From: Brumimicrobium sp.
GTDB taxonomy: Bacteria > Bacteroidota > Bacteroidia > Flavobacteriales_D > Crocinitomicaceae
DNA: 64,000 nt
Assembly: GCA_965656195.1 (NCBI GenBank)
Contig: CBFHJL010000001.1
Coordinates: 11,715-75,714, forward strand
Reading direction: 5' to 3'
The notes beneath the pieces are model-generated. The model was not told where the DNA came from. It saw nothing but the letters and a program-made list of their open reading frames with translations, and searched no databases. The translations under genes were made by a program, and so were the position numbers. Positions 19,133 to 58,647 of this stretch are shown piece by piece; the stretch's first letter is position 1, and every line of letters begins with the position of its first letter.

Positions 19133-19723
19133 ATGAGTCAGAGTCGAATAAACCCCGTTTATCATCATTCAGATAGGATGCTGAGTGACGAGCAAGAGCA
19201 AATCGCTCTTGCGAAAAGTGATCCTAGATATTTTGCTCCACTGTATGAGAAATACCACGAGCAGATTTTTAGATACATTGATCAGCGTATGGATGATCAA
19301 GACCTCGCGTACGATGTAACTTCACAAGTTTTTCTTAAGGCGATAAAAAATATTCACAAATTTGAATATAGAGGGGTTCCGCTAGGTTCATGGCTTTATA
19401 GAATAGCTAAGAGTGAATTAAATCAAGCCTTTAGAAATCGAAAAGCTAAACGAGCGATCAATATAGATAAAACGCATGTTGCTACTTTCATGGAAGTTTT
19501 TAGCGAGGAAGAAAATGATTTGAATCGTAAACGACTATTTAATGCTTTAGATCAGTTGAAGGATGTGGACTTGCAACTGATAGAATTACGCTACTTTGAA
19601 GATCGTCCATATCGTGAGATAGGGGAGATACTCGAAATCAAGGAGAATAATGCGAAAGTGAAAACTTTTAGAGCACTTGAAAAATTGAAACATCTATTTA
19701 CTAAAACCTACGGTAATGAGTAA
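19133..19723 (+). CDS. ECF RNA polymerase sigma factor
   Basis: FAPLYEKY, D..YDVTSQVFLKA, SWLYRIA, region 4 LRYFEDRPYREIGEIL..KENNAKVKTFRA; start set at ATG 19133. Confidence 0.93.
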   Translation: MSQSRINPVYHHSDRMLSDEQEQIALAKSDPRYFAPLYEKYHEQIFRYIDQRMDDQDLAYDVTSQVFLKAIKNIHKFEYRGVPLGSWLYRIAKSELNQAFRNRKAKRAINIDKTHVATFMEVFSEEENDLNRKRLFNALDQLKDVDLQLIELRYFEDRPYREIGEILEIKENNAKVKTFRALEKLKHLFTKTYGNE

Positions 19724-21398
19724 TCGTAAAATTAATTATAATCGTCCGGTACCATCTAGCGAAAAGGTAAAGGAACGTCAAAATTTTGATGACGTTCTGA
19801 ATCAAATCGCAACGGTACCTGCACCGTTTTTTAAGAGCATAGGTTTCTGGGGAGCTATTGGTTCCTCAGTAATCGCTTTTACTTTTCTAACCAACCAATA
19901 TTTTAATTCTGTAAAAGAGAAAAATGCCTATGAAGCAAACCCTACTTTAGCAATTCAGTCTAATGAATTACCTCAAGACACAAAGTGCATAAAACCAATC
20001 AATGATCGTGTAGATCATGAATTTGAAACTTTCGTAATTCAACCGAATAAGTCAAATACTATCTACGTAGAAGGAGGTGCTATAATATCCATTCCTGCAG
20101 ATGCATTTGTAACGGAAAGCAAAGAGGATATTATAATTAATGCCAGAGTATTTAGAGACAAATCAGAAGCCTATGTTGCTGGTGTTCCAATGGACTATGG
20201 TGATAGCGAGGCTTTTGAGTCTGCTGGAATGATAGAAATCAGAGGCAGTCAAAATGGAAAGAAGGTGGAGTTGAATGCTGATAAAGAGATTGAAGTCACT
20301 TTAGGCTTGCATAAGTCGCCTGAAGATTTTGATTTTTACGCCTTGGATGATCAAACAGGTGAATGGTCAGAATATGTTGCAGAAATGAAATCCATCGCTC
20401 AACAATTGCCAGAACAAAATGATTTGGTTGAAGCGTTAAAATCTGAATTGAATGAAGGTATAAAGCGTGTTGAGGCTGTAGAGAAGGAAATCTCAACGTT
20501 AACTACACCCAAGAAAGCAGATTATCATATCGCTGAGAACAAACAACAAGTGTTCGAACTGAAGTTTAATAAACACGAATTTCCGGAGCTAAGATCATTT
20601 GAACAGCTTCAGTTTGAGGCTAAGTGTAGCGCTCTTAAATATAGTGAGATTCTTGTTAAAACATGGACAGATGTTGATCTTCAGCAAACGAATAGAGGAG
20701 AGTATCAAGCTGAATTTTCAAATCGAAGTGGTGCGAAAATAGCTGTTGATGTTGTGCCGGTTGTAAGTGGTAAACAAGCTGATATAGCATTCAAAAGATA
20801 TTCATCTGAAAAGAAACGTATAGAGAATGAAAGACGCAAGAAACAAGAGGTGTTAGAAGGTCTATACGCTGAAAATAATGAAAGACAAGAAAGAATTAGC
20901 AGTCTCATTAGCCTGGATGAACGCAGAAATCAGGAGTTTTTGGATCGTCGTGCACAAGCTGATAATAAAGAGTTTGTTGAGAAAGTTGCAATGTTGAACG
21001 AGTTCTACAATGCTTCAGCTACATTCAGAACAAACAGATGGGGTGTTTTTAACTGTGATAAACCTGTTAAGTATCCTAGCGCTCCTTTGTCACCATATAC
21101 TTTTGCTTCAAACAATAATCCTGTGAAAGCTCGAGAAATTCATGTTTTTGATCTCGATAAAGATGTGCAATATAGGTATGGAACTCATAATCATCCATTG
21201 GCTTCAGCTGCTATTAATAATGGTGAAACTGTAATAATTGTTCAAGATCGAAATGGTAACATGGGGTATGCAAGAGTTCACTCAAGAAAAGAGATTCAGA
21301 ATCGAGTAATTAAGCTCATTCCTATAAATGCAAAGGAGGCAGATATGGAGTTCTTCAAATCATTATTGGATGAAGATAAGGAAAGAGTTAGGGCTTAG
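19716..21398 (+). CDS. Single-pass membrane protein, candidate anti-sigma factor
   Basis: 8-nt overlap with the sigma gene; about 38-aa cytoplasmic N-terminus, one hydrophobic helix, beta domain (FESAGMIEI), coiled coil, WGVFNCD motif. Confidence 0.65.
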   Translation: MSNRKINYNRPVPSSEKVKERQNFDDVLNQIATVPAPFFKSIGFWGAIGSSVIAFTFLTNQYFNSVKEKNAYEANPTLAIQSNELPQDTKCIKPINDRVDHEFETFVIQPNKSNTIYVEGGAIISIPADAFVTESKEDIIINARVFRDKSEAYVAGVPMDYGDSEAFESAGMIEIRGSQNGKKVELNADKEIEVTLGLHKSPEDFDFYALDDQTGEWSEYVAEMKSIAQQLPEQNDLVEALKSELNEGIKRVEAVEKEISTLTTPKKADYHIAENKQQVFELKFNKHEFPELRSFEQLQFEAKCSALKYSEILVKTWTDVDLQQTNRGEYQAEFSNRSGAKIAVDVVPVVSGKQADIAFKRYSSEKKRIENERRKKQEVLEGLYAENNERQERISSLISLDERRNQEFLDRRAQADNKEFVEKVAMLNEFYNASATFRTNRWGVFNCDKPVKYPSAPLSPYTFASNNNPVKAREIHVFDLDKDVQYRYGTHNHPLASAAINNGETVIIVQDRNGNMGYARVHSRKEIQNRVIKLIPINAKEADMEFFKSLLDEDKERVRA

Positions 21399-36960: not shown

Positions 36961-37072
36961 TTTCAATCACACATAACGTTTCTCACAATATTATATTGCC
37001 TCTCATCATAATAGATGATTAAATAGTAATTAATTTGTTTATATTTGAACAAATAATTTAAAAAAATCTATT

Positions 37073-37804
37073 ATGAAAAAACTTTACACATTGGCGGTTG
37101 CCACTTTATTAGCTGGAGCGTCTTTTGCTCAGGTTGACGTTGAAATTGAGTTGGTTTCACCAACATCGGGATCGTCAGAAGCACCAGGAGTTATCTCTCT
37201 TGAATTTAATATTCTTAATAATGGTCCTGATGACATCGTAGAAGGAGATACTATTTATTTTGGTGCTCTTAGAGGAACTGACCTTGTTGATAGTGATGGA
37301 ACTCTTAACTCTGTTAATGGTATCATAATTCCTACAGGATTTGGTAACATCGCTTCTGGTGGTAGCATTCCTTGGGCTGCAATTTCTGCTGCAGTAGGAG
37401 GATCATTCGATGTTGATTGTTCTGGTTTGACAACTCAAACTTCTGTATGTGCCTATTTAGCTGGTATCGGTTCAGACGCGTTAACGCAAGCTGGTGATGA
37501 TGAAGATCCAGTTTTTGATAATAATACAGATTGTTTCACAGTAGATCCTGCTTTGGCTAATATAGTAGAGCTTGATTTTACTGACGCTGTTGACGTATCT
37601 TTTACTGCAACTGAAATTCAGATTTCTTCTGAATTGAATCAAGAACTGAACTACTCTGTAGTTTCAATTACTGGTCAGGTAGTTGCTTCAGGTTCATTAA
37701 CTGATTTTACAACTGTTTCTACTGAAGATTGGAACCGTGGTTTATACATCGTTCGTGTTGAAGGAGCTAATGAAGTAACTTCTACAAAAGTGATCGTTCA
37801 ATAA
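37073..37804 (+). CDS. Small acidic T9SS cargo protein (Ig/CARDB-like plus CTD)
   Basis: Signal peptide ending SFA|Q; NNGPD, D..FDNN; C-terminal WNRGLYIVRV...TKVIVQ; -7 box TATATTTG at 37040-37047. Confidence 0.75.
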   Translation: MKKLYTLAVATLLAGASFAQVDVEIELVSPTSGSSEAPGVISLEFNILNNGPDDIVEGDTIYFGALRGTDLVDSDGTLNSVNGIIIPTGFGNIASGGSIPWAAISAAVGGSFDVDCSGLTTQTSVCAYLAGIGSDALTQAGDDEDPVFDNNTDCFTVDPALANIVELDFTDAVDVSFTATEIQISSELNQELNYSVVSITGQVVASGSLTDFTTVSTEDWNRGLYIVRVEGANEVTSTKVIVQ

Positions 37805-37823: not shown

Positions 37824-37855
37824 AAAAGCGGTACTCTTGGAGTACCGCTTTTTTT
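37824..37855. terminator. Bidirectional intrinsic terminator
   Basis: Perfect stem AAAAGCGGTACTC-TTG-GAGTACCGCTTTT between convergent genes. Confidence 0.88.
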
Positions 37856-40799
37856 ATTCCTCATTATATCTTGGATCACCGATATAATTGAGTTTTTTAC
37901 TGTGAATAACTTCAAGTGAATAATATCCAAATTCTTCAGTAACTCTTCCATTGATCTGGTATATTCCTCTTCCCTGAAAAGGGAATTTTCTGATGGTTGG
38001 AGGGAAGTGAACCGATTCGAAAAAGTTCCCCCAATAATCTATAAATGTGCCAAAGCACATGTGTTCATTTCTATTGGTCTTTGTATTCTTGATAGAAACG
38101 AGATAGCCATACATTTTAATTTTCCGTCCAGCATATTCATTAAACAAAGTAGCACGAATAGTAGGTTTAACCGGTTCTTGAAGCAATAGAAAGGGGTTGC
38201 ATAAGGGAAAGTCCAATAGCTCCATTTCTTCAAAAGCTTGCTCTAATTTATCTACAGGGAGATTCGGAAATGTGAAGTCCTTATTCTTTTGCTCAAATAA
38301 TTCAGGCTGCTTATCAGTCCTAGTATTGGTCTTGTAAAACAAGTGTACGCGCCATTTTAATTGTTGTTTTTCGCTGGAAATTTTTCGGAATGCTCCGATG
38401 CGTATAAGTAGCAGTACATTCTCGATAGAGAGGTAGGTCCCTTTCAATAACTCTTCAAGTGAAGTAAAAGCTCCATTTACTTCACGATACTGTAATAGCT
38501 TGTAGATATCTTTGCTACCAATACCATTAATTAGGTTGAATCCAAGATAGATGGTATTTCCTTCTACGATCGTCTGCCAATGACTCTTTTGAATGCAGGG
38601 AGGTTCTATTTCAGCACCTTTTCTTTTGGCTTCATGAATGTAGAATTCTGTTCGGTAATACCCTCCAAAATTATTGATGGTGGCAACCATATATTCGATG
38701 GGGAAATAGGCTTTTAAGTATAAACTTTGGAAGCTTTCTACTGCATAAGAAGCGGAGTGACCTTTTGAAAAAGCATAGCCTGCAAAACTCTCAATTTGTT
38801 TCCATATGGTCTCGGTTACCTGCTCTCCATATCCTATTTGTGAGCAGTTCTTAAAGAATTTTTGCTTGATCACTTGAAATTCTTTTCGAGATCGATATTT
38901 ACCAGACATTCCTCTTCTTAAAACATCCGCTTCGTCCAGAGTAAGGCCGGCAAAAAGGTGAGCTACTTTGATCACATCTTCTTGGTAAACCATAACACCA
39001 TAAGTTTCGGGCATGATTTTCAAGAGTTCAGGGTGCGCAGTTTTTCTGCGTTCTTTGCTTTTGTGTCTGAGTATATATTCTCTCATCATTCCTGAATCAG
39101 AAACCCCAGGTCTAATAATAGAGCTGGCAGCAACGAGTTCAAGATATGTGCTCGTTTTTAGTTTTTTCATTAACTGTCGCATAGCGGGAGATTCAACGTA
39201 GAAACAACCCATTGCCTCACCGTTCTGAAGCAATGCGCAAACATTTGGATCTTCTTTGAAATGTGTCACATCATGTATGTCATGAATCTTCTTTTCTGGT
39301 TGATTGTATTTTATGATTTCAATGCTTTCGTGAATCTTGCTTAGTCCACGTTGACTTAAAATATCAAACTTGTACAATCCAACATCCTCAGCTTCTAGCA
39401 TAGAAAACTGTGTCGTGGGAAATCCTTTTGGTGGTAGAAATGTCGCGCTGAACCATGTTGTCGGTTTTTCACTAATAATTATTCCTCCTGAATGAACACT
39501 GAGGTGAGAGGGGAGTCCTTCTATGTAACTACTGTATTTGAGCACGAGTTGACTCATTTCATCAAGTTGGGTTATGTTATATTTTCCACGACTTAATACA
39601 TCAATATCTGATTTTGGAAGCCCGAAGACCTTACCTAGCTCACGAACAGTGGCTCTGAATTTAAATGTATTATATGTGCATAGTAATGCCGCGTTAGGAA
39701 ATCGTTTGAAAATATATTGTATAACCTCGTCACGCTCTTTCCATGAGAAATCAATGTCAAAGTCTGGAGGGTTTTTACGATATACATTGATGAAGCGCTC
39801 AAAGTAAAGATCAAGCTCCAATGGGTCAACATCTGTTATGCCGAGTAAATAGGCGACAATACTGTTAGCTCCGCTGCCTCGTCCTACATGAAAATATCCT
39901 TTTGAGGTAGCGTAGTTGATGATGTCCCAAGTCACCAGAAAGTAAGCGAGATAATCCTTTTTCTCGATCACATCAATTTCACGATGGATACGATCTTTAA
40001 TGACTTGGTTAACGGTAGGGTATCTTTTTGGTAATCCTTGCTGGCATAATGATTCAATTAGCTGCTTGTCCTGTGATTTTGATCCAGTGTATGTTTGAAT
40101 ATTTTGAGCTTCAACTTCATCTCCAAAACTGAAATTGACATGGCAAGACTCCATCAGATTCTCTGTACGTGTTATAATTTCAGGGAAATCCCTATAAAAA
40201 TCATAAAGTTCTTTTTTTGAAATAAAATGATCTCGCTCTTGAGCTTGCTCTTTGGTAGGTAGCTTAGATAGCAAACAATTCTTATCTATTGCACGCAAGA
40301 GCCTGTGAGCATTAAATTCTCTTTTGTTCTCAAATGTCATCGTTTGCAGAATGACCATTTTGTTCATGTTACTTTTTTGATCATTATTCAATTTATTCAC
40401 TTGAGACGGACGAATGCCAAGGTATTCATCATTTCTGTAGACTCTAGGAGCGTTCTTTAGCGGGTATACAGCTATACAGTTAGGTAAATACTCTGTACGA
40501 TCTGGGAATGGTAGGTTTTCATGGAGATGATGGGATATATAGGTGTTGATTTCGTGAAAACCCCGATTGTTTTTAGCAATTAGTATGTATTTCTGATCTA
40601 TTCCGTTTCTTATATCTGCGCCTGCTATGATCTTTGTATCAATTTCTTGTGATAACTTAATAGAACTTAGTATAGCAGTTGTACTGTTAATGTCGGTAAT
40701 AGCTACTTTTTCATATCTATTGTATTTTGCCCATTCTAGAATCCAGCGAATTGACTTCACTCCATATTTTATGCTGTATTTTGAATGTATATTAATCAT
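37854..40799 (-). CDS. dnaE2: DnaE2-type error-prone DNA polymerase III alpha subunit
   Basis: PHP N-terminus (H.KYS), GRGSGANS, PPDFDIDF, KFDILSQRGL, YAFSKGHSASY, OB fold; 981 aa, shorter than replicative DnaE. Confidence 0.88.
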   Translation of the reverse strand: MINIHSKYSIKYGVKSIRWILEWAKYNRYEKVAITDINSTTAILSSIKLSQEIDTKIIAGADIRNGIDQKYILIAKNNRGFHEINTYISHHLHENLPFPDRTEYLPNCIAVYPLKNAPRVYRNDEYLGIRPSQVNKLNNDQKSNMNKMVILQTMTFENKREFNAHRLLRAIDKNCLLSKLPTKEQAQERDHFISKKELYDFYRDFPEIITRTENLMESCHVNFSFGDEVEAQNIQTYTGSKSQDKQLIESLCQQGLPKRYPTVNQVIKDRIHREIDVIEKKDYLAYFLVTWDIINYATSKGYFHVGRGSGANSIVAYLLGITDVDPLELDLYFERFINVYRKNPPDFDIDFSWKERDEVIQYIFKRFPNAALLCTYNTFKFRATVRELGKVFGLPKSDIDVLSRGKYNITQLDEMSQLVLKYSSYIEGLPSHLSVHSGGIIISEKPTTWFSATFLPPKGFPTTQFSMLEAEDVGLYKFDILSQRGLSKIHESIEIIKYNQPEKKIHDIHDVTHFKEDPNVCALLQNGEAMGCFYVESPAMRQLMKKLKTSTYLELVAASSIIRPGVSDSGMMREYILRHKSKERRKTAHPELLKIMPETYGVMVYQEDVIKVAHLFAGLTLDEADVLRRGMSGKYRSRKEFQVIKQKFFKNCSQIGYGEQVTETIWKQIESFAGYAFSKGHSASYAVESFQSLYLKAYFPIEYMVATINNFGGYYRTEFYIHEAKRKGAEIEPPCIQKSHWQTIVEGNTIYLGFNLINGIGSKDIYKLLQYREVNGAFTSLEELLKGTYLSIENVLLLIRIGAFRKISSEKQQLKWRVHLFYKTNTRTDKQPELFEQKNKDFTFPNLPVDKLEQAFEEMELLDFPLCNPFLLLQEPVKPTIRATLFNEYAGRKIKMYGYLVSIKNTKTNRNEHMCFGTFIDYWGNFFESVHFPPTIRKFPFQGRGIYQINGRVTEEFGYYSLEVIHSKKLNYIGDPRYNEE

Positions 40800-40810
40800 T
40801 TCTCTAGATT

Positions 40811-40818
40811 CAAAATTA
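40811..40818 (-). promoter_or_regulatory. -7 promoter box TAATTTTG for dnaE2
   Basis: Consensus match 11 nt upstream of the ATG; overlapped by the first operator box. Confidence 0.6.
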
Positions 40819-40851
40819 ATTATTAATCATTATAATGATTAATAATTAATC
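40814..40851. promoter_or_regulatory. Tandem operator: AATTA-N5-TAATC plus GATTA-N5-TAATC, forming a perfect 36-bp palindrome (40815-40850)
   Basis: ATTAATTATTAATCATTA|TAATGATTAATAATTAAT read directly. Confidence 0.75.
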
Positions 40852-40972
40852 AAAATAAAACAAGTAATACCTCAGGTGACTGTTTTACAGTTTCTTGAAA
40901 AAATCAAAAGAATAAAACGTATAATGGTTATATTTAAAGTGTTGTAGCTATTCAAATAATATATATTCTACT

Positions 40973-42313
40973 ATGATCATTGATATTCCGCATAATAAGA
41001 AAGCAAGAGTTGTTATCATCGGAGGAGGGTTCGGAGGTATTCAGCTTGCTAAGACGTTGAAGAACAAAGATGTTCAGGTTGTGATCATTGATAAGAATAA
41101 TTACCATACTTTTCAGCCGTTGTTGTATCAAGTAGCTACTTCAGTTTTAGAATCTGAATCGATTGCTTACCCCATCCGAAAGATCTTTAAAAAAGCCAAG
41201 AATGTCTTTTTCCGATTAGGAGAGGTGACGAAGATTGACCCAAAAGAAAATAAAGTTTACCTGGATAATGATGAGTTATCGTATGATCATTTGGTGATTG
41301 CTACTGGTGCACAAACGAATTTCTTTGGTAATGACGGTTTGATTGTTAACTCGATGCCGATGAAGAGTATCATAGAGGCACTTGATCTTCGCTCGATGAT
41401 TTTAAATAATTTTGAGAAGGCCTTGCGGAATTCTAATGAGCGAAAGCGAAAGGGGATGATGAATTTTGTAATCGCAGGTGCTGGCCCAACGGGTGTTGAA
41501 TTAGCCGGAGCAATGGGGGAGTTGAAGTTGCATGTACTTCCGCATGATTACCCTGAGTTGGATTTCAGTCAGATGAATGTCTACCTTGTGCAGAGTGGTA
41601 GTAGGGTATTACCGATGTTAAGTGAAAAGAGTAGTGAAAAAGCAAAGCGCTATTTAGAAAAGTTAGGCGTTAACGTAGTTTTAAATACGAGAGTATTGGA
41701 CGTGTCCGGAGATTATGTTCAGACCTCTACGGAAGAAGATATTATTGCACGAACGTTGATTTGGACGGCCGGAGTTGAAGGAAACCCTGTTGGAGGTCTT
41801 GGAAAAGAAGCGATTGTTCGTGGAAATCGAGTAGCAGTGGATGAGTTTAATCGTGTTAAAGGGTATGACAATATTTATGCGCTTGGTGATGTAGCGTCAA
41901 TGTCAACAGAAGAACATCCCAATGGTCATCCCATGATTGCTCCACCAGCTATGCAGCAAGGAGTAAATTTGGGTAAGAACATTCTCCGCTCTCAGAAAGG
42001 TCAGCCAATGAAACCATTTCAATATAAAGACAAAGGCGCCATGGCTACTGTAGGTAAGAATAAGGCCCTTGTGGAAATGGGTAAATTCCGTAGCGGTGGA
42101 ACGTTTGCCTGGTTTGTGTGGATGGGAGTTCACCTCATGGCGCTTGTTGGGTTCAGAAATAGAATCATTACACTCTTTAACTGGACGAAGAATTATTTTA
42201 GTTCCGATAGAGGGATGCGTTTAATGATCTCAAAGTATGATCCAGGAGATGAACGTCGTAAGAAGAAGCAACAAATGAAAAAGCGCCACCTTGCTCAAAT
42301 GGAGAAGGACTAA
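40973..42313 (+). CDS. ndh: Type II NADH dehydrogenase (NAD(P)/FAD oxidoreductase)
   Basis: IIGGGFGG, FQPLLYQVA, GAGPTGVELAG, YKDKGAMATVG. Confidence 0.9.
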   Translation: MIIDIPHNKKARVVIIGGGFGGIQLAKTLKNKDVQVVIIDKNNYHTFQPLLYQVATSVLESESIAYPIRKIFKKAKNVFFRLGEVTKIDPKENKVYLDNDELSYDHLVIATGAQTNFFGNDGLIVNSMPMKSIIEALDLRSMILNNFEKALRNSNERKRKGMMNFVIAGAGPTGVELAGAMGELKLHVLPHDYPELDFSQMNVYLVQSGSRVLPMLSEKSSEKAKRYLEKLGVNVVLNTRVLDVSGDYVQTSTEEDIIARTLIWTAGVEGNPVGGLGKEAIVRGNRVAVDEFNRVKGYDNIYALGDVASMSTEEHPNGHPMIAPPAMQQGVNLGKNILRSQKGQPMKPFQYKDKGAMATVGKNKALVEMGKFRSGGTFAWFVWMGVHLMALVGFRNRIITLFNWTKNYFSSDRGMRLMISKYDPGDERRKKKQQMKKRHLAQMEKD

Positions 42314-43197
42314 GGTATAGCCCTTACTGCATCTGATAGATGTTGAAATTTAAACTTGAAGTTTTCTTTTTCAAGATTTTCAGGAAGTACCCATCGACTT
42401 TTCAAGACAAGCTCTGTTTCTGTTCTAATCACAAAAGCACCTACTGCTAAAAGACATCTAGGGATAGGAATATACCAGTTTCTACCGTGAAACTCCCTTA
42501 CCCATTGCATGAGTTTCTCGTTGTCACTTGGGTTCGGAGAAGTGCAGTTATAGATTGCTTTTGGATTTTCACTATTCTCTATATGTCTTATTATTCTATA
42601 TAGATCTTCTATATGTATCCAACTGAATTTTTGGGATCCTTTACCTTGTGGACCTCCAAAACCAAATTTTGCTAACATCTTTAAAGGAGTAAAAGCACTT
42701 CCGTCTCCAAGTACAATTGCAGTTCTAATAGCCACTTGTTGTACGTTTTTGTGTTTTTTAGCGAAGAAAGCTGACTCCCATGTTCTTGCGACGTGAACGG
42801 AAAAACCGGTTCCTATCTCACCATTTTGCTCTGTCATTGGTCGATCTTCAGCATGTCGATAAATTGTTGCTGTGCTAGAGTTGATCCACTTTTTTGGTGG
42901 ATGCTCACATTCTTTAATGATTTCATGTAGCCTGAGTGTTGTCCAAGTTCTTGATGTTAGCACTTTCCATTTGTTGCGATAGGTATATCTACAATCAACT
43001 GATTTCCCACTTAAATTCACAAGTACCTCAGCGTTGTTGAGTGAATCTATAAGTCCTTCTGTGTCCTTCCAGCTCACTTTTCCCGTCCCGCTTTTTCTAG
43101 AGATTGTGATAACTTCATAACCTAACTCTATGTATCTTTCTTTAAGATAACTTCCGATAAAACCAGTGCCTCCCGCTATGACTATTTTATTTTTCAT
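42310..43197 (-). CDS. TIGR01777/YfcH-family NAD-dependent epimerase-like protein
   Basis: IAGGTGFIG, NLSGKSV, SWIHIED, SRWVLP..L...F.F. Confidence 0.88.
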   Translation of the reverse strand: MKNKIVIAGGTGFIGSYLKERYIELGYEVITISRKSGTGKVSWKDTEGLIDSLNNAEVLVNLSGKSVDCRYTYRNKWKVLTSRTWTTLRLHEIIKECEHPPKKWINSSTATIYRHAEDRPMTEQNGEIGTGFSVHVARTWESAFFAKKHKNVQQVAIRTAIVLGDGSAFTPLKMLAKFGFGGPQGKGSQKFSWIHIEDLYRIIRHIENSENPKAIYNCTSPNPSDNEKLMQWVREFHGRNWYIPIPRCLLAVGAFVIRTETELVLKSRWVLPENLEKENFKFKFQHLSDAVRAIP

Positions 43198-43561
43198 GAT
43201 CTACTTTTTTAAATTCATTAATTGTGATGATTAGATACCCTATCGCCATAATAATTCCAGCAAAGAACATGATCGCAAGGTAAAGGAATAGCAATTCTCT
43301 AAGTAAGATTGTAAGCAAACCTAATATAGCTAATGAAACTAAGCTTATCGTATATCCGGTTGGGTTTGAATTGTTCTTCAACCTTCTATTTAAGTGAAGC
43401 AAATAGCTTAAAAGTTGTACTCCTCCTAATCCAAAGAAGAAGAGAAGGAATGAAGCTCCACAATACATTGGCAGAAATAGGAATGAAATCGAAAGTGCTA
43501 GAATTGTAGCCTGTATAAAGATTTCGACCTTGAGCAGTGTTCTTAAATTTTTAGTTTTCAT
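43187..43561 (-). CDS. Small 4-TM membrane protein (paralog of 63093-63467)
   Basis: Hydrophobic; KVEIFIQAT, GLGGVQLLSYLLH, YLIITINEF. Confidence 0.7.
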   Translation of the reverse strand: MKTKNLRTLLKVEIFIQATILALSISFLFLPMYCGASFLLFFFGLGGVQLLSYLLHLNRRLKNNSNPTGYTISLVSLAILGLLTILLRELLFLYLAIMFFAGIIMAIGYLIITINEFKKVDHEK

Positions 43562-43577
43562 ATTTATATTTTTAAAG

Positions 43578-43595
43578 TTTCAGAAATTATTGAAA
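43578..43595. promoter_or_regulatory. Operator candidate TTTCA-N8-TGAAA
   Basis: TTTCAGAAATTATTGAAA; second copy at 44148-44165. Confidence 0.6.
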
Positions 43596-43612
43596 GTTTG
43601 AATTAAATTTTT

Positions 43613-44116
43613 TTATTTCACTAATTTGAATAGGGTAGCATAGATCCAATTTTCATCAGATCGACTGAATTTGTCTAGTAATCCGTCAACTTTACCTGAA
43701 AATGAATGAATATCTTTCGTTATTTTTTGAAAAGCTAGTGCATCCTTACTGTCATCGAACTTTTCTGTAGATAATTGCTGCATGATCTGAGTTACTGGTT
43801 CTATTTCACGTTTTCTTCTTTCTCTTGCAATTGATCGAGCAACTTTGTTGATGTCTTTTTCGGCTTTGAAAAACTCTTTTCTTTCACCGATGTGATGTTC
43901 TTTATATACCAATCCCCAGTCTTGTAAAGCTCTAAGATTCATATTCGCATTCCCTCTGGAGATTTGAAGTCTTTCCATAGCCTCTTCAGTTGTAAGTGCA
44001 TCTGGCGAAATCAATAATAGCGCGTGTATTTGTGCCATGGTCTTGTTTATTCCCCAACTCGAACCAAGTTGTGCCCAGTGTTGTATAAATGCGCTTTGTG
44101 CTTCTTTTAATTCCAT
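43613..44116 (-). CDS. GbsR/MarR-family transcriptional regulator
   Basis: FIQHWAQLGSSWGINKTMAQIHALL, SRGNANMNLRAL.DWGLV; start set at ATG 44116 after -7 box TATCTTTG (44123-44130). Confidence 0.9.
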   Translation of the reverse strand: MELKEAQSAFIQHWAQLGSSWGINKTMAQIHALLLISPDALTTEEAMERLQISRGNANMNLRALQDWGLVYKEHHIGERKEFFKAEKDINKVARSIARERRKREIEPVTQIMQQLSTEKFDDSKDALAFQKITKDIHSFSGKVDGLLDKFSRSDENWIYATLFKLVK

Positions 44117-44145
44117 CTTCAACAAAGATATATACTTATTTCTAA

Positions 44146-44167
44146 ACTTTCAAAAATAATTGAAAGT
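44146..44167. promoter_or_regulatory. Operator candidate ACTTTCAA-N6-TTGAAAGT
   Basis: Palindrome over the upstream promoter region of the regulator gene. Confidence 0.65.
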
Positions 44168-44221
44168 ATTTGCGTTTTATTTTTCATTTATCTGATTATT
44201 AAATATTTAAAATACTTGATG

Positions 44222-45439
44222 TTACACCCTTCGATTCGCCAATAATACAGGTGGTTCTCCATTGAAAGGATTCGTTCTTCCTATGGTTCTGGCTGTTAAA
44301 CCTGCTGCACGCATTACGCTTCGATCGCCAAACCGATTACGGATATTATCCATAGCCTGATATAAATCGCTCTGTCGTGTATCATCTGTAAATAAGTTGA
44401 TCTGATGACTACCGCTCACAAGGTGACTCAGTCGTATTCCGATCAAGCGAATTCGAACCCTTCGGTTATAAATCTTATCAAAAAGCTCTAATACCAATGG
44501 AATGATCTCGTGATCGGCAGCTGTATAAGGAATCTTTTTTTGTAGTGTTTTCGTCTGAAAATCTGAATAACGTACTTTGACAGTTACACAGGCACAAACC
44601 TTATTTGCTCTTCGCAATTGAAAGGCTAAGTTTTCTCCCATTGCGGATAGAATTCCTTTTACTTTTAAAATGTCAATTGTATCACGATCAAAAGTGCGTT
44701 CTGTGGAAATCGATTTGCGTTCACTGTGTTGAATAACAGGTGAGGGGTCTATACCATGCGCTTTCTTCCAGATCATACGTCCATTCTTACCAAATACTTG
44801 TTCTAGTAGTTCAACAGGCATCTCTTGAAGGGTGTAGATCTTTTTTACACCTAGTCCGCAGAAGGTTTGGTACGTTTTTAATCCTACAGAAGGGATTTTT
44901 CGTATGGATAGTGGTGCAAGAAATGGTCGTTCAGTTCCATAATTTACATTGATTGCATTATTAGGTTTGGCTTCTCCCGTAGCGATCTTGGAAACCGTTT
45001 TGTTTTCTGATAACCCGAATGAAATGGGTAGTCCGGATTCTCTAATGATCTTTTCTCTCAATTCATCAGCGTATTGTTTACAGCCGAAAAAACGATCCAT
45101 CCCTGTGAAATCGAGATAGAATTCATCGATTGAACTCTTCTCATATACAGGAGCTGATTCGCGGATAATCTCTGTGACAATTCTTGAGTATTTAGTGTAG
45201 GTAGATGAATTACCTTTAATTACAATAGCATCAGGACATCGTTGCAGTGCCATTTTCATAGGCATAGCAGAATGAACACCGAATTTACGAGCTTCATAAC
45301 TACATGATGCTACAACACCGCGATCGCTGGTTCCTCCAATCAGTATAGGTTTGTTGTTTAATCGACTGTCGAGTAGACGTTCACATGAGACAAAAAAAGT
45401 GTCCAAATCCATATGGACAATAGCGCGTTCCTTTTGCAT
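44222..45439 (-). CDS. dinB: DNA polymerase IV (Y family)
   Basis: HMDLDTFFVS, GVVASCSYEAR, SIDEFYLD; start set at ATG 45439. Confidence 0.95.
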   Translation of the reverse strand: MQKERAIVHMDLDTFFVSCERLLDSRLNNKPILIGGTSDRGVVASCSYEARKFGVHSAMPMKMALQRCPDAIVIKGNSSTYTKYSRIVTEIIRESAPVYEKSSIDEFYLDFTGMDRFFGCKQYADELREKIIRESGLPISFGLSENKTVSKIATGEAKPNNAINVNYGTERPFLAPLSIRKIPSVGLKTYQTFCGLGVKKIYTLQEMPVELLEQVFGKNGRMIWKKAHGIDPSPVIQHSERKSISTERTFDRDTIDILKVKGILSAMGENLAFQLRRANKVCACVTVKVRYSDFQTKTLQKKIPYTAADHEIIPLVLELFDKIYNRRVRIRLIGIRLSHLVSGSHQINLFTDDTRQSDLYQAMDNIRNRFGDRSVMRAAGLTARTIGRTNPFNGEPPVLLANRRV

Positions 45440-45508
45440 AACTAAGCATTTACAGGTTAAAAAAATGACAATTGGAACTGCATATCGAATTGCTCCTTTC
45501 GGATAGAA

Positions 45509-45516
45509 CAAAGATA
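45509..45516 (-). promoter_or_regulatory. -7 promoter box TATCTTTG for dinB
   Basis: Consensus match; operator boxes begin 16 bp further upstream. Confidence 0.6.
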
Positions 45517-45532
45517 GGTTAAGTTTTAAAAA

Positions 45533-45570
45533 GATTAAAATATAATCAATGAAAAGATTATTAAATAATC
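45533..45570. promoter_or_regulatory. Tandem operator: two perfect GATTA-N5-TAATC boxes
   Basis: GATTAAAATATAATC (45533-45547), 8-bp spacer, GATTATTAAATAATC (45556-45570). Confidence 0.75.
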
Positions 45571-45771
45571 ATTTTAATGTAATCAATTAGCTGGTGCATT
45601 AAACATTAAAAACAGGTTCATGGTGATAGTATAATTTACTGAATGCAAATAATGTAAAAGGAACATTTTTTCTTGACTAAATAGCAATAGAACTGTTATT
45701 TTGAACTAAATAGTGGAGTGATTGAATCAAAAAGTTGGTTAATAATAGCATCGACGTAAATTTGACGAGAA

Positions 45772-46173
45772 ATGGGAATAGTATTGCTTCCAGTCTACTT
45801 GCTAGCCTTTCTAGTATGGGTTTTTGCTTTGATTTTTTTTCTTTTAAGAACTTCTGATGGGCATATGGCGAAATGGTGGAGTATACCTATTGGGATATTG
45901 ATTTCTCTGTTTCTATATGTTTTATTACTTTATTCTTGGTCACTTCAAGATGAAGTATGGGGGTTACAATCATATTTTAGCATACCAATGATTCATATTG
46001 TCTTTCCAGGTCTTGTTGGATTAGCTGGGATATATATACCTAAGCACAGAGTGTTTTGGAATGTAATAGGTTTCTCCTTTTGCTTTGCAGCTATAATCCC
46101 GCCTTTTGTATATTTATTCGCACCTTATTTATTGGATGCAGATACCTTCGTTAATATTAGGCTAACCTATTAA
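45772..46173 (+). CDS. Hypothetical 4-TM membrane protein
   Basis: Hydrophobic ORF with -7 box TAAATTTG at 45757-45764. Confidence 0.7.
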   Translation: MGIVLLPVYLLAFLVWVFALIFFLLRTSDGHMAKWWSIPIGILISLFLYVLLLYSWSLQDEVWGLQSYFSIPMIHIVFPGLVGLAGIYIPKHRVFWNVIGFSFCFAAIIPPFVYLFAPYLLDADTFVNIRLTY

Positions 46174-46174
46174 C

Positions 46175-46204
46175 AAAAAAAACTGCCCACCTTTCGATGA
46201 GCAG
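46175..46204 (-). terminator. Intrinsic terminator after lpdA
   Basis: - strand CTGCTCATC-GAAA-GGTGGGCAG then a T run. Confidence 0.82.
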
Positions 46205-50332: not shown

Positions 50333-52081
50333 ATGAAATATTATCTATCAATACCCGCTCCGCAACAACAGTATATTCATTTTAAGACACGTTTTAAATC
50401 GCACAAGAAGCAAACTGTACTGAAGTTTCCTGCGTGGCGGCCGGGAAGATATCAATTAGGGGATTTTGCAAAAAATGTAAATCATTTCAACGTATTTACG
50501 AATGATGGCAAGCCACTTGGTTATACAAAAGTAGATAAGAATACCTGGATAATCGAAAATGGTGACACTACTGAATTTACAGTTCAATATAGCTATTATG
50601 CTCACGAACTAAATGCTGGATCTAGTTTCTTGGATGAATCTCAACTTTACGTAAACCCTGTAAACTGTTTTCTTTTCAATCCTGATGAGTATAACGATGA
50701 AATTCAGGTTTCACTTGATGTTCCGCAGCATTGGGAGGTGGCAAACCCTCTCGAGACTAAAAACAATAGGTTTACTGCAAAGAATTATGATGAGTTGGCG
50801 GATAGTCCATTTATCTGTTCGGCGGACTTACAAATGTCATCTTACGAGGTGAATGGCATTACTTTTAAAATATGGTTTAATGGAATAGTGAAACCTGATT
50901 GGGAATTGATTATTAGCGATTTTACCAAGTTCACAGAGAAGCAATTAGAAATGTTCATTGAGTTTCCAGTGAAGGAATACCACTTTCTATTTCAAATTCT
51001 ACCGTATAAAACATACCATGGAGTAGAGCATGAAAAGTGTACCGTAATCACTATTGGACCAAGCTACGATGTATTTAAAGATTATTACACTGAATTGTTA
51101 GGAGTTAGCTCGCATGAACTTTATCATACCTGGAATATCAAGTCTATACGTCCTGCTGAAATGATGCCTTATGATTTCACGAAAGAGAATTATTCTGAAC
51201 TTGGCTACATTGCAGAGGGAGTAACAACCTACATGGGAGACCTTATGTTATATAAGTCTGGTGTGTTCGGTCTTAAGCAGTACATCAAAGAAATGAATGC
51301 TCAATTGCAGCGGCATTTCGATAATTTTGGACGATTCAATTATTCTGTTGCTCAATCTTCTCATGATACTTGGCTGGATGGATATGAACTAGGTGCTCCT
51401 GGAAGAAAAGTTTCTATCTATACTGAAGGGTGCTTACTCGCCTTTATTCTTGATATCCACATATTAAAAGCTACCAAAAACAAGAAAAATTTGGATAACG
51501 TGATGCGTAGTCTCTATTTTGATTTTGGAAAAGAAGGGAAAGGTATCACTGAACAGGATTATCAAGCTGCTATAGAGAATGTAACTGGAGATTCTTTTCA
51601 ATGGTATTTTGATGATTACGTGAATGGTACAAATTCATACAATTCTCTTTTGGTTGATTGCTTTGAATATATTGGTTTGATACTTCAGCACGAACCCGTT
51701 AAGGATGCTGCAGCGGCTTACCTTGGTGCTAGAACAATTGTGAAAGATGGGAAAACAGAAATTCATTCCCTTTACCCAGGTGGAGCCATGGACATTGCTG
51801 GCGTAATGATCGGTGATGAAGTCGTAGGAATTAATGGAGTTGCAGTGAATGGAGATTTTCCGAAATGGGTTGACTATTTCATGGAAGACGAGAAAGTGTT
51901 ATCCATCAAACGAAAGGGGCAAGTTAAAACATTAGTAGTTCCTCAAACGAATAGACCGTATTATCAGCGCTACTATTTGGAGGTTGTTGAGAAACCTGAT
52001 AAAAATCAAATCAATGGGTTTGATGGGTGGAGAAGTGCTCCGTTAGGAGATCGAGGACATGCTAAGATAACATTAGATTAA
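50333..52081 (+). CDS. M61 glycyl aminopeptidase with PDZ domain
   Basis: PAWRPGRY, GVEH, SHELYHTWN (HExxH), AEGVTTY, PDZ segment GVMIGDEVVGING. Confidence 0.92.
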   Translation: MKYYLSIPAPQQQYIHFKTRFKSHKKQTVLKFPAWRPGRYQLGDFAKNVNHFNVFTNDGKPLGYTKVDKNTWIIENGDTTEFTVQYSYYAHELNAGSSFLDESQLYVNPVNCFLFNPDEYNDEIQVSLDVPQHWEVANPLETKNNRFTAKNYDELADSPFICSADLQMSSYEVNGITFKIWFNGIVKPDWELIISDFTKFTEKQLEMFIEFPVKEYHFLFQILPYKTYHGVEHEKCTVITIGPSYDVFKDYYTELLGVSSHELYHTWNIKSIRPAEMMPYDFTKENYSELGYIAEGVTTYMGDLMLYKSGVFGLKQYIKEMNAQLQRHFDNFGRFNYSVAQSSHDTWLDGYELGAPGRKVSIYTEGCLLAFILDIHILKATKNKKNLDNVMRSLYFDFGKEGKGITEQDYQAAIENVTGDSFQWYFDDYVNGTNSYNSLLVDCFEYIGLILQHEPVKDAAAAYLGARTIVKDGKTEIHSLYPGGAMDIAGVMIGDEVVGINGVAVNGDFPKWVDYFMEDEKVLSIKRKGQVKTLVVPQTNRPYYQRYYLEVVEKPDKNQINGFDGWRSAPLGDRGHAKITLD

Positions 52082-55734: not shown

Positions 55735-58647
55735 ATGTCAGCTTCAAAAGGTAAAAAAAAGAAATCATTGATTAAACGGATCTTTAAATACTTGGTAATA
55801 CTCCTTGTAGTGATCATTACTTCGTTGATACTTATTCCAATCTTTTTCAAAGATGAACTGAAACAACTGGCACTTGATGAGGCGAATAAAATGTTGAATG
55901 CCACAGTTGAAGTGGATGATTTTGACCTAACTTTTATATCCACTTTTCCTGATATGACACTTTCTTTCGATGGGGTCAGAATAACGGGGCAAGATAACTT
56001 TGATGGTATCAAGCTGGTTGACCTTAAAAGATTAGAAACTGAATTAGGTTTCTGGAGTGTTATAGATATGGAGAACATTGAAGTGCGTTCCATTAAACTG
56101 ATTGAACCTAAGATTCATGTTAAAGTTTTAGAAAACGGTCTTTCCAATTATGATATTATGAAAACCTCTGAGGAGTTAGCTGCTGAAGAGGTGGATACAA
56201 CTTCGTCAGCTTTTAAACTTGGTCTAAATCACTATGAGATTGAAAAGGGACATATTGTGTATGAAGACCAACTTTTCCCGATGTATGCTGAGATTGTAAA
56301 CCTTAATCATAAAGGTACTGGTGATTTAACGGCAGAGGTAATTGATTTTTCTACTACAACTACAATGGATCAATTGACGTATGAAATGGACGGAATTTCC
56401 TACCTGTCATCAGTAAAAACTGACCTTGACATGGACTTAAAAATGACGTTCACAGATGAAAGCAGTCGATTCGAATTGAAAGAGAATAAACTTTCATTGA
56501 ATACTTTAACTACTTCTTTTGACGGTTATTATGAAATGTTTGAGGGATATGATGACATGGATTTAACCCTGAATGCGGAAAAAACAAGCTTCAAAGATCT
56601 TCTTTCGTTAATTCCTGCTTTCTATTATACCGGGTACGAAAGTATGGTAGCATCTGGAGAGATGAGTTTAAACGGGTTTGTAAAAGGACAAATGGATGCC
56701 TCAAACCTTCCTGCTTTTGATTTTGGTACTAGAATCACAGGGGCTTCGATCAATTATCCAGATATGCCTTCATCTATTGACAATATTGCTGTTGTTGCAG
56801 GAGCTAAGTTTCCTGGAGGTTCAAGCATGGATGCAATTACTGTCGCTGTCGATCAGTTCAAAGCTGCATTTGTCGGAAATACAATTGACGCTAATTTCTA
56901 TATGAGTAATCCAATGACAGATCCTTATATGCGATCTAAAGTTTTAGCGAATGTTGATCTTTCTACTTTAGGAAAGGTAATTCCATTAGGTGAGAATGAA
57001 GAGTACAACGGTAAATTGACATCAGATCTTAAAGTGGACGGTAGATTGTCTACACTTGAGAAAGAGGAATATGAGAAATTCAATGCGGAAGGTTCGTTAA
57101 GACTTGAGAAGTTCCATTATGATTCGGATGATCTTCCTGCAGCGGTGGATGTAGAAGATATGTTATTCGAGTTTTCTCCACAAAAGTTGAACCTTGCTAA
57201 TTTAAAAGGTAAAATGGGAGCAAGTGACTTTACGATGAGTGGGGATGTCGAGAACTACATGGCCTATGCTTTCAATGAAGGAGACTTAAAAGGAACTTTT
57301 GATTACCATTCAGACGTTTTAAATATCGATGAGATCATGCCGGCATCCGAGGAGGCTCCTGCACAGGGTGAATCCGCAGAGGAATCAACTGGTGAATCTG
57401 CAAGCGCATCATCTTCGGAAAGTGAAGAACCGATTTTGATTCCTGCAAATATTGATTTCACGATGACCACAACCGTTGATGAATTGATTTATGATGGATT
57501 AGATGTGAAGAAGATCAATGGAATGGTTTATTTAAGAAATGAAGAAGCTGTACTGGAAAATCTTTCCATGAATACGATGGGAGGAGAAGTTGGTTTAAGT
57601 GGAAAGTACAATACGCAAAACCACTCAAAACCAATGATGGATTTTGCATATAGTTTAAAGTCTGTTGATATTAATGCATTGGCAACAAACTTCCTTACGA
57701 TTGAGAAACTAGCTCCAATTGCTAAACATGCTCAAGGTAAGATTACATCTGATTTCAAAATGTCAAGTGAAGTCACTCCATCGTTTGAGCCTGTTTACAG
57801 TTCACTGAATGGTGACGGAACCTTATTTACAGATATGGTTAAGCTTGAAGGTTACAAGCCATTAGATAAGTTAGCAGAGGCGACTAAGATCAATAAGTTA
57901 AGTGATCAAACATTGGAAAATATTAGAGCTTCTTTTGCATTTGAAGATGGAAAAGTTCGAGTGAAGCCGTTCAAGATCAAACTAGCAAAGAATATCGCGA
58001 CTGAAGTGAGTGGAACAACATCTTTCTTACAAGAAATCGATTATAAATTGGAGATGAATATTCCTAAGGAAGAAATCCCAGGAGAAGTGATGAAACTTGC
58101 TGAGCAAGCAATCAAAAAAGTAAAAAATATCCCTGGCTTTGAAATGAAAGAGCTTCCAGCGGAGATCCCGGTAACTGCTTTCGTAACGAATACCATAAAA
58201 GATCCAAAGATCAAGACGAACATGAAAGAAAAGATCATGGAGCTGGCTGGAGACGTAAAAGGTGATATCAAAGATATGATCGACGATAAAGTTGAAGAGA
58301 TCAAGGATACAGTAAAACAAGTTGTCGATGATAAGATCGAAGAAGGAAAAGAAGAGCTTCAAAAGCGCAAACAAAAAATTCTTGATGATGCACAAATGCA
58401 AGCGGATAAGATTAAGTCTGAAGCTAAAAAGTTAGCAGACCAAACTAGAGCAGAGGGTGAGAAGAATGCTCAGAAATTGATCGATGAAGCTGGAAATAAT
58501 CCACTCAAGAAGAAAGCGGCAGAACTTAGTGCGAAAAAGTTACGTGAACAAGCAGAAGATAAGGCTCAGAAAATTGAAAATGAAGCGAATACAAGAGCTG
58601 ATAAGATTATGGCTGAAGCTAGAAAGAAATCGGATGCATTGGAATAA
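55735..58647 (+). CDS. AsmA-family protein with helical repeat C-terminus
   Basis: N-terminal TM anchor, repeated beta-taco segments, C-terminal A..I..EA repeats. Confidence 0.85.
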   Translation: MSASKGKKKKSLIKRIFKYLVILLVVIITSLILIPIFFKDELKQLALDEANKMLNATVEVDDFDLTFISTFPDMTLSFDGVRITGQDNFDGIKLVDLKRLETELGFWSVIDMENIEVRSIKLIEPKIHVKVLENGLSNYDIMKTSEELAAEEVDTTSSAFKLGLNHYEIEKGHIVYEDQLFPMYAEIVNLNHKGTGDLTAEVIDFSTTTTMDQLTYEMDGISYLSSVKTDLDMDLKMTFTDESSRFELKENKLSLNTLTTSFDGYYEMFEGYDDMDLTLNAEKTSFKDLLSLIPAFYYTGYESMVASGEMSLNGFVKGQMDASNLPAFDFGTRITGASINYPDMPSSIDNIAVVAGAKFPGGSSMDAITVAVDQFKAAFVGNTIDANFYMSNPMTDPYMRSKVLANVDLSTLGKVIPLGENEEYNGKLTSDLKVDGRLSTLEKEEYEKFNAEGSLRLEKFHYDSDDLPAAVDVEDMLFEFSPQKLNLANLKGKMGASDFTMSGDVENYMAYAFNEGDLKGTFDYHSDVLNIDEIMPASEEAPAQGESAEESTGESASASSSESEEPILIPANIDFTMTTTVDELIYDGLDVKKINGMVYLRNEEAVLENLSMNTMGGEVGLSGKYNTQNHSKPMMDFAYSLKSVDINALATNFLTIEKLAPIAKHAQGKITSDFKMSSEVTPSFEPVYSSLNGDGTLFTDMVKLEGYKPLDKLAEATKINKLSDQTLENIRASFAFEDGKVRVKPFKIKLAKNIATEVSGTTSFLQEIDYKLEMNIPKEEIPGEVMKLAEQAIKKVKNIPGFEMKELPAEIPVTAFVTNTIKDPKIKTNMKEKIMELAGDVKGDIKDMIDDKVEEIKDTVKQVVDDKIEEGKEELQKRKQKILDDAQMQADKIKSEAKKLADQTRAEGEKNAQKLIDEAGNNPLKKKAAELSAKKLREQAEDKAQKIENEANTRADKIMAEARKKSDALE

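Follow-up and report, generated by a model that had tools for sequence, protein, structure and literature searches.

A perfect palindrome at a Brumimicrobium dnaE2 promoter as probable tandem SOS operators of a non-canonical LexA

The promoter of a dnaE2-type polymerase gene of Brumimicrobium sp. carries a perfect 36-bp palindrome, which very probably represents two tandem SOS operators, each of its boxes presumably being bound by a dimer of a non-canonical LexA (ncLexA), a repressor with a CI-like HTH_3 domain and an S24 peptidase domain. Comparison with related sequences indicates that the conserved units are two boxes of the form GATTA-N5-TAATC and the spacing between them, and not the palindrome as a whole. 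The locus lies in a 64,000-nucleotide stretch, hereafter the window, and is in itself a piece of ordinary biology, an SOS box on an SOS gene. Since error-prone polymerases are what drives mutagenesis after damage, their repression matters for bacterial adaptation. For Bacteroidota, a description of the SOS system dates only from 2021; it comprised two validated motifs and one variant, and left several lineages with a regulator but without a known binding site (PMC8565304). The two-box operator described here would fill this gap for Crocinitomicaceae.

The palindrome and the two-box layout in the window

The features at the dnaE2 promoter are as follows.

37854..40799, minus strand: dnaE2-type polymerase (DnaE family, 981 aa), ATG at 40799; putative regulated gene
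40811..40818, minus strand: putative -7 promoter element, TAATTTTG, fits TAnnTTTG
40814..40828, minus strand: dnaE2 proximal box, AATTAATTATTAATC on the plus strand and GATTAATAATTAATT on the minus strand
40815..40850, no strand: perfect palindrome, ATTAATTATTAATCATTA followed by TAATGATTAATAATTAAT
40829..40836, no strand: inter-box spacer of 8 bp, ATTATAAT
40837..40851, minus strand: dnaE2 distal box, perfect GATTA-N5-TAATC, GATTAATAATTAATC on the plus strand and GATTAATTATTAATC on the minus strand
40973-42313, plus strand: NDH-2-like gene (ndh), divergent from dnaE2

The palindrome consists of two 18-nt arms (40815-40832 and 40833-40850), which are 100% complementary and meet without a spacer, exactly as a reading of the sequence alone had described it; the symmetry stops at 40814 (A) and 40851 (C). 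An arm of this length is far beyond chance. In 200 simulated sequences, the longest spacerless arm was 11 (100 Markov-1 sequences of window composition) or 13 (100 AT-rich sequences of 64 kb, modelled on intergenic DNA with 24% G+C), and the next longest spacerless palindrome in the real window has an arm of 7, as compared with 18 at dnaE2.

The same sequence-only reading had raised the concern that the palindrome might be a fold-back product of the assembly. In three separate marine-plankton runs, Logan contigs extend over it from either side and do not differ from the window sequence, and its flanks are two unrelated genes which are not mirror images of each other. Moreover, an independently assembled Brumimicrobium MAG (L001), whose DnaE2 is 95% identical, has the same ndh-palindrome-dnaE2 order, with a single, uncompensated A-to-G substitution in one arm. 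Given the differing flank genes, the independent MAG and the contigs of three runs, a fold-back artefact is very unlikely, and the palindrome can be regarded as genuine. The Logan contigs break inside it, at 40821, 40844 and 40847; de Bruijn assemblers break at palindromes. In run X1, the Logan word depth doubles across the palindrome (about 26 versus 12, window 40803-40864), and a separate 33-nt contig spans 40818-40850, both of which are to be expected of k-mers present on both strands and not of a change in copy number. A search of 40300-46200 with Rfam covariance models gave no match at E <= 1; since, in addition, both likely transcription starts are downstream of the site, a role of the palindrome at the RNA level is unlikely.

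The palindrome contains the two 15-bp boxes, 8 bp apart, that had been proposed from the sequence, at 40814-40828 and 40837-40851, which places their centres 23 bp from each other. The distal box fits GATTA-N5-TAATC perfectly, and the proximal one has a single mismatch, at the outermost position. The 8-bp spacer is itself palindromic at dnaE2, which is not so in other operators. The -7 promoter consensus of Bacteroidetes is TAnnTTTG, and the putative element TAATTTTG, located 11 nt upstream of the ATG, conforms to it and overlaps both the proximal box and the palindrome, in agreement with the previous -7 call; it is kept in L001. The dnaE2 leader would then be only about 5-7 nt long. A scan with the sigma-70 consensus flagged a central TATAAT, which was set aside, since Bacteroidota promoters use -33/-7 elements. 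No RNA-seq runs containing the dnaE2 locus were found. The intergenic region is indeed divergent and common to dnaE2 and ndh, as had been noted, and the likely -7 element of ndh, TATATTTA at 40929-40936, is about 80 bp beyond the palindrome. Because of this distance co-regulation is not indicated, and control of ndh by the palindrome site is probably absent.

The window was searched for ATTA-N5-TAAT and then for GATTA-N5-TAATC. It contains three perfect GATTA-N5-TAATC boxes, as compared with 0.24 expected and at most two in any of 100 shuffles. All three sit in the promoters of dnaE2 and of dinB, and the fourth box of these promoters has one mismatch. The layout at dinB, with an 8-bp gap and 23 bp from start to start, is the same as that at dnaE2.

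44222..45439, minus strand: dinB (DNA polymerase IV, Y-family), start corrected to ATG 45439; second putative regulated gene
45509..45516, minus strand: putative dinB -7 element, TATCTTTG, 16 nt downstream of the proximal box
45533..45547, minus strand: dinB proximal box, perfect GATTA-N5-TAATC, GATTATATTTTAATC on the minus strand
45556..45570, minus strand: dinB distal box, perfect GATTA-N5-TAATC, GATTATTTAATAATC on the minus strand

The dinB start given in the list of open reading frames, TTG 45511, falls inside the putative -7 element; the true start is almost certainly ATG 45439 (MQKERAIVHMDLD...), with a leader of about 60 nt. Boxes with one mismatch that stand alone are found in the window at the rate expected by chance (9 observed, 4.9 expected), and therefore they were not counted as sites. 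The only other intergenic near-match in the window is such a box (GATTAAATAGTAATT, 37017-37031), 42 bp upstream of a gene for a T9SS-sorted protein (37073-37804); it is unpaired and compatible with chance. The motif is AT-rich, and TAAT/ATTA strings are frequent in AT-rich intergenic DNA, which counts against the operator reading. Elsewhere in the window, three open reading frames, 55735-58647 (970 aa), 50333-52081 (582 aa) and 19716-21398 (560 aa), had no NCBIfam match at E <= 1e-10, and the longest of them overlaps a 128-aa open reading frame on the opposite strand.

Recurrence of the boxes and the repressors linked to them

To follow the boxes in related genomes, 80 genome loci (1.05 Mb) were fetched by DnaE2 homology alone, ignoring the motif. 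The closest relatives of the window are Brumimicrobium, Fluviicola, Lishizhenia and other Crocinitomicaceae (Flavobacteriales). The dinB and dnaE2 genes adjoin in nearly all of these loci, mostly as a dinB-to-dnaE2 operon, and pairs of GATTA-N5-TAATC boxes, 22-24 bp from start to start, are present upstream of dinB/dnaE2 in about 15-16 of them (L001-L008, L010-L012, L015, L039, L059, L061). Of 21 perfect boxes in the fetched 1.05 Mb, 20 are inside those promoter regions. In dinB-first loci a TAnnTTTG element follows the second box after 6-9 nt, and in most related loci the proximal box has one mismatch, as at dnaE2 in the window. Other lineages carry at the same position pairs of TGGA-N5-TCCA, 19 bp apart, CTAA-N5-TTAG boxes, or a CTAC-N5-GTAG variant, the last often with a divergent HTH-S24 gene. 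Of these three types, the TGGA and CTAA boxes correspond to published ncLexA operators (PMC8565304).

The CTAC-N5-GTAG sequence was seen upstream of dnaE2 in Winogradskyella, Algibacter and related Flavobacteriaceae (L014, L016, L022-L024, L031, L041, L044, L047, L056, L057), in most cases flanked by dnaE2 and a divergent HTH-S24 repressor gene, and seems to be a further variant of the CTAA-N5-TTAG box known from the literature. A conserved TTGTT (…ttgttGATTA…) abuts the distal box of many Crocinitomicaceae dinB operators (L002, L003, L008, L010, L011, L015, L039) and is missing from both operators of the window; it may be part of a longer site or of the promoter. Small genes for four-helix-bundle proteins of the 23S rRNA intervening-sequence type also recur beside or inside the dinB/dnaE2/repressor cluster, for example at 5514-5864 of L002, and they adjoin the operator in L083, L087, L114, L115, L157 and L166.

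Metagenome contigs were scanned for GATTA-N5-TAATC-N7-9-GATTA-N5-TAATC, which gave 120 loci. In 58 of them the pattern is located in the promoters of SOS genes, every one of which points away from the site: 30 are divergent ncLexA/dinB pairs, 13 have ncLexA alone, 11 dinB alone, and 4 dnaE2. The gap between the boxes is 8 nt in 47 of these 58 loci, and at 43 metagenome loci the two-box site is directly upstream of a gene for an HTH_3 + S24 repressor. At one extra locus a gene for an SOS-response-associated peptidase adjoins the site. The remaining 62 loci are unrelated (a 38-bp palindromic repeat from coral metagenomes and several tandem repeats) and were left out of the operator statistics. 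Thus, the inference from the sequence that the palindrome is a site for two repressor dimers gains strong comparative support, since the boxes and their spacing recur at dinB in the window, at dinB/dnaE2 in related genomes, and at the promoters of LexA-like repressor genes.

The 38-bp repeat is itself a perfect palindrome, GATTATTCACTAATCTGCTAGCAGATTAGTGAATAATC, nearly identical on about two dozen contigs, many from one metagenome family (L084, L088, L098, L103, L109-L112, L117-L120, L127, L130, L132, L134, L137, L140, L163, L174, L186, L190, L194, L200). No SOS gene is near it, and its match to the two-box pattern is coincidental; it resembles a dispersed repeat or a mobile-element end.

The repressors encoded next to the boxes have an HTH_3 domain (PF01381) and a Peptidase_S24 domain with the Ala-Gly cleavage site, the serine in a GDSM motif, and the lysine. 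They form a distinct clade, with 60-69% identity within it, 33-41% identity to the CTAA/CTAC-type repressors and 24-31% to those of the GGA type. At E <= 1e-20, over 7,000 homologues of these repressors are present in the database, and NCBI already names some of them "LexA family transcriptional regulator". The GATTA-N5-TAATC motif would assign a predicted operator to a large environmental Bacteroidota repressor clade previously without one, and the SOS regulons of that clade would become predictable from sequence. The closest homologues (P0015, P0031, P0052, P0063, P0105) are annotated as Bacteroidales or Bacteroidia MAGs. In complete genomes, the 2021 survey found both repressor groups absent from the order Bacteroidales (PMC8565304); either the environmental lineages differ in this respect or the taxonomy labels of the MAGs are coarse.

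The window itself contains no HTH-S24 gene, as judged by tblastn with the L024 repressor and by a search for the GDSM motif, and none was found in a contig that extends the window by about 2.8 kb (L201). From its relatives we infer that this genome carries the repressor gene elsewhere. Fluviicola taffensis, of the same family, has one such regulator and no recognised motif in the 2021 survey (PMC8565304). WP_013688318.1 of its strain DSM 16823 is an example of a Crocinitomicaceae repressor. The first homologue search with a box-linked repressor was filled by close relatives labelled Bacteroidales and returned zero Crocinitomicaceae sequences, and the Crocinitomicaceae clade was reached via representatives at 50% identity and a second homologue search, with proteins annotated as Crocinitomicaceae and Flavobacteriales. 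It is the nearest relative, the sister, of the box-linked clade (39-48% identity, versus 35-39% to the CTAA/CTAC types). Both clades have the recognition-helix signature RST(L/Y)SGYENxVAxP, whereas the CTAA/CTAC-type repressors have RS(L/I)(I/V)GAYEEGRSEP, and this appears to be a clean case of a recognition helix and an operator changing together.

The neighbourhood of the Crocinitomicaceae repressor gene (L202-L210) comprises nadE, a WG-repeat gene, a 257-aa gene, the repressor gene and thrS-infC-rpmI-rplT; the gene thus has conserved housekeeping neighbours and does not adjoin dinB. Two of three lineages show in the promoter of this gene a box with a single mismatch (at -70/-72), a degenerate second box 8 nt beyond it and, further on, a -7 element; in the third lineage the best box has two mismatches. 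The imperfect boxes at the repressor's promoter, as well as the lack of a repressor gene in the window, count against the operator reading. LexA systems usually have a weaker site on the repressor's own gene.

The whole-site symmetry and alternative readings

The operator reading leaves one property of the dnaE2 site unexplained. Besides the boxes there are nine free position pairs, five between the N5 spacers and four in the 8-bp gap, and at dnaE2 all nine are complementary, as compared with two of nine in the dinB operator of the window and two to six of nine in 44 distinct other SOS-linked operators. With the mean rate per pair in these 44 operators (about 0.37), the chance of nine out of nine, given two boxes, is about 1e-4. 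In the sequences compared, the perfect symmetry is specific to one lineage, being present in the window and broken in L001. A split of dnaE2 from dinB by an insert of about 3.4 kb (window 40800-45511) is likewise confined to this lineage, the window and L001. The insert contains a MarR-like gene (43613-44125), a gene for a 124-aa membrane protein, a yfcH-like oxidoreductase gene and the divergent NDH-2 gene, while the next relative, L012, and most other relatives retain the dinB-to-dnaE2 operon. After the split, each polymerase gene of the window has its own two-box operator. We favour a recent origin of the dnaE2 operator, which may have arisen, once dnaE2 and dinB were separated, by inverted duplication or template switch of one half. 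The 36-bp symmetry would then most likely be a by-product of the lineage-specific origin of the operator, and is probably not a functional requirement.

A stronger claim, that the symmetry is non-incidental, having come from a single inverted duplication or template switch of a half-site or being maintained for control by a hairpin or cruciform, seems to us unlikely; if true, a hairpin or cruciform formed in single-stranded DNA at stalled forks or under supercoiling stress would add a repressor-independent control to an error-prone polymerase gene. It is still less probable, to the point of being very improbable, that the spacerless palindrome is itself the functional element, extruding a cruciform under negative supercoiling and acting as a supercoiling or stress switch on dnaE2, with or without the repressor. 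The sequence-only reading had mentioned cruciform extrusion in passing, and physically it is possible: the hairpin predicted for single-stranded DNA has -11.2 kcal/mol (z = -5.5 versus shuffles), the palindrome is AT-rich, which favours extrusion, and the nine-of-nine symmetry is hardly expected by chance. However, a selected function of this kind finds no support in the comparison, as the substitution in one arm of L001 is uncompensated, neither the dinB operator nor any of the 44 others exceeds six complementary free pairs, and what is conserved across genomes is the dyads and their spacing. Additionally, with 18 bp the arms are on the short side for in vivo extrusion.

That the boxes are operators for some other factor, either the MarR-like regulator encoded at 43613-44125 (minus strand) or another regulator unrelated to SOS, is improbable as well, if slightly less so than the cruciform switch. 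The gene for this MarR_2/HTH protein immediately follows dinB on the same strand, short palindromes are among the targets of MarR-type dimers as well, and the HTH-S24 repressor proposed as the binder is not encoded in the window. The MarR-like neighbour was nevertheless rejected as the regulator, since it has zero homologues in the 80 related dinB/dnaE2 loci, including those which carry the boxes. Moreover, the gene that recurs beside the boxes is that of the HTH-S24 repressor (43 loci), and the genes under the boxes are the classic SOS core. Least probable of all, to the point of being hardly credible, is a palindrome without function, whether created by fold-back in the assembly or arisen by chance or neutrally in AT-rich sequence. 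The breaks of the Logan contigs within the palindrome are what could be cited in its favour, but contigs of three runs enter it from both sides without differences, the flanking genes are unlike, the layout is repeated in the independent MAG, no simulated arm exceeded 13, as against 18 here, and the motif recurs at orthologous promoters.

Proposed regulation and comparison with known systems

In the tandem-operator reading, one repressor dimer would bind each GATTA-N5-TAATC box. With the proximal box overlapping the putative -7 element and the distal one occupying the stretch upstream of it, two bound dimers would exclude RNA polymerase from the dnaE2 promoter. DNA damage would activate RecA, the repressor would then cleave itself under RecA stimulation, and the promoter thus freed would allow synthesis of the error-prone polymerase. 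The dinB gene of the window, with its identical two-box layout, would be under the control of the same repressor and likewise expressed after damage. Repressor binding, cooperative action of two dimers, repression and induction by damage are inferred here from sequence comparison. Pairwise cooperativity of the dimers is a reasonable guess, based on the spacing of about 23 bp, which resembles that of λ CI operators, and on the CI-like DNA-binding domains.

The closest known relatives of these sites are the operators of the Bacteroidetes non-canonical LexA proteins, published as GGA-N5-TCC, CTAA-N5-TTAG and the variant TTAC-N5-GTAA, the first two of which were validated by EMSA and mitomycin C induction (Sanchez-Osuna et al. 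2021, PMC8565304). As in those operators, a dyad, a 5-bp spacer and a dyad form a palindrome, which here occurs twice at dnaE2 and twice at dinB. Similarly, the sites are in the promoters of error-prone polymerase genes of the SOS core in related genomes and of repressor genes, there are often at least two of them per promoter, and the regulator linked to them combines a CI-like HTH with an S24 peptidase. The dyad, however, is GATTA/TAATC, with five specified bases per half, and differs from the validated motifs; the boxes have a period of 22-24 bp, versus 19 bp for the GGA type; and the GATTA-linked repressors stand apart as a clade of their own, whose recognition helix differs. Thus, by its sequence features the two-box operator is a variant of the Bacteroidetes non-canonical LexA SOS box and not an instance of a described motif. 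The 2021 study predicted further diverged dyad-N5-dyad variants, and its Table S10 contains only one unvalidated ATTA-TTGTT-TAAT candidate, from one other genome (PMC8565304). GATTA-N5-TAATC seems to be new as a recognition sequence, and a literature search found no later description of it.

The sites differ both in motif and in spacer from the box of canonical LexA proteins with the winged-helix domain PF01726 (CTGT-N8-ACAG in the E. coli type, or its clade equivalents). Canonical boxes of this type control the imuA-imuB-dnaE2 mutagenesis cassette, and the logic proposed here is the same: a self-cleaving repressor would hold dinB and dnaE2 off until DNA is damaged. In contrast to canonical LexA, the DNA-binding domain of the linked regulators is a CI-like HTH_3 and not the winged helix LexA_DNA_bind, and unlike the cassette, the window has no imuA and has as Y-family partner a DinB which retains its catalytic residues.

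The layout can also be compared with that of phage operators and of structural palindromes. At OR1-OR2, λ CI binds with pairwise cooperativity to 17-bp sites that are 23-24 bp apart, centre to centre. Here, too, a regulator of the CI-type HTH and S24 architecture would act on two palindromic sites 23 bp apart over a promoter, and this λ-like arrangement suggests cooperative binding by two dimers; the differences are that the sites are 15 bp and not 17 bp long, and that they belong to a chromosomal SOS regulon and not to a phage switch. With cruciform-forming palindromes the dnaE2 site has in common a perfect, AT-rich and spacerless inverted repeat with a predicted stable hairpin, but its arms are short (18 bp), and its symmetry is conserved neither in relatives nor in similar operators.
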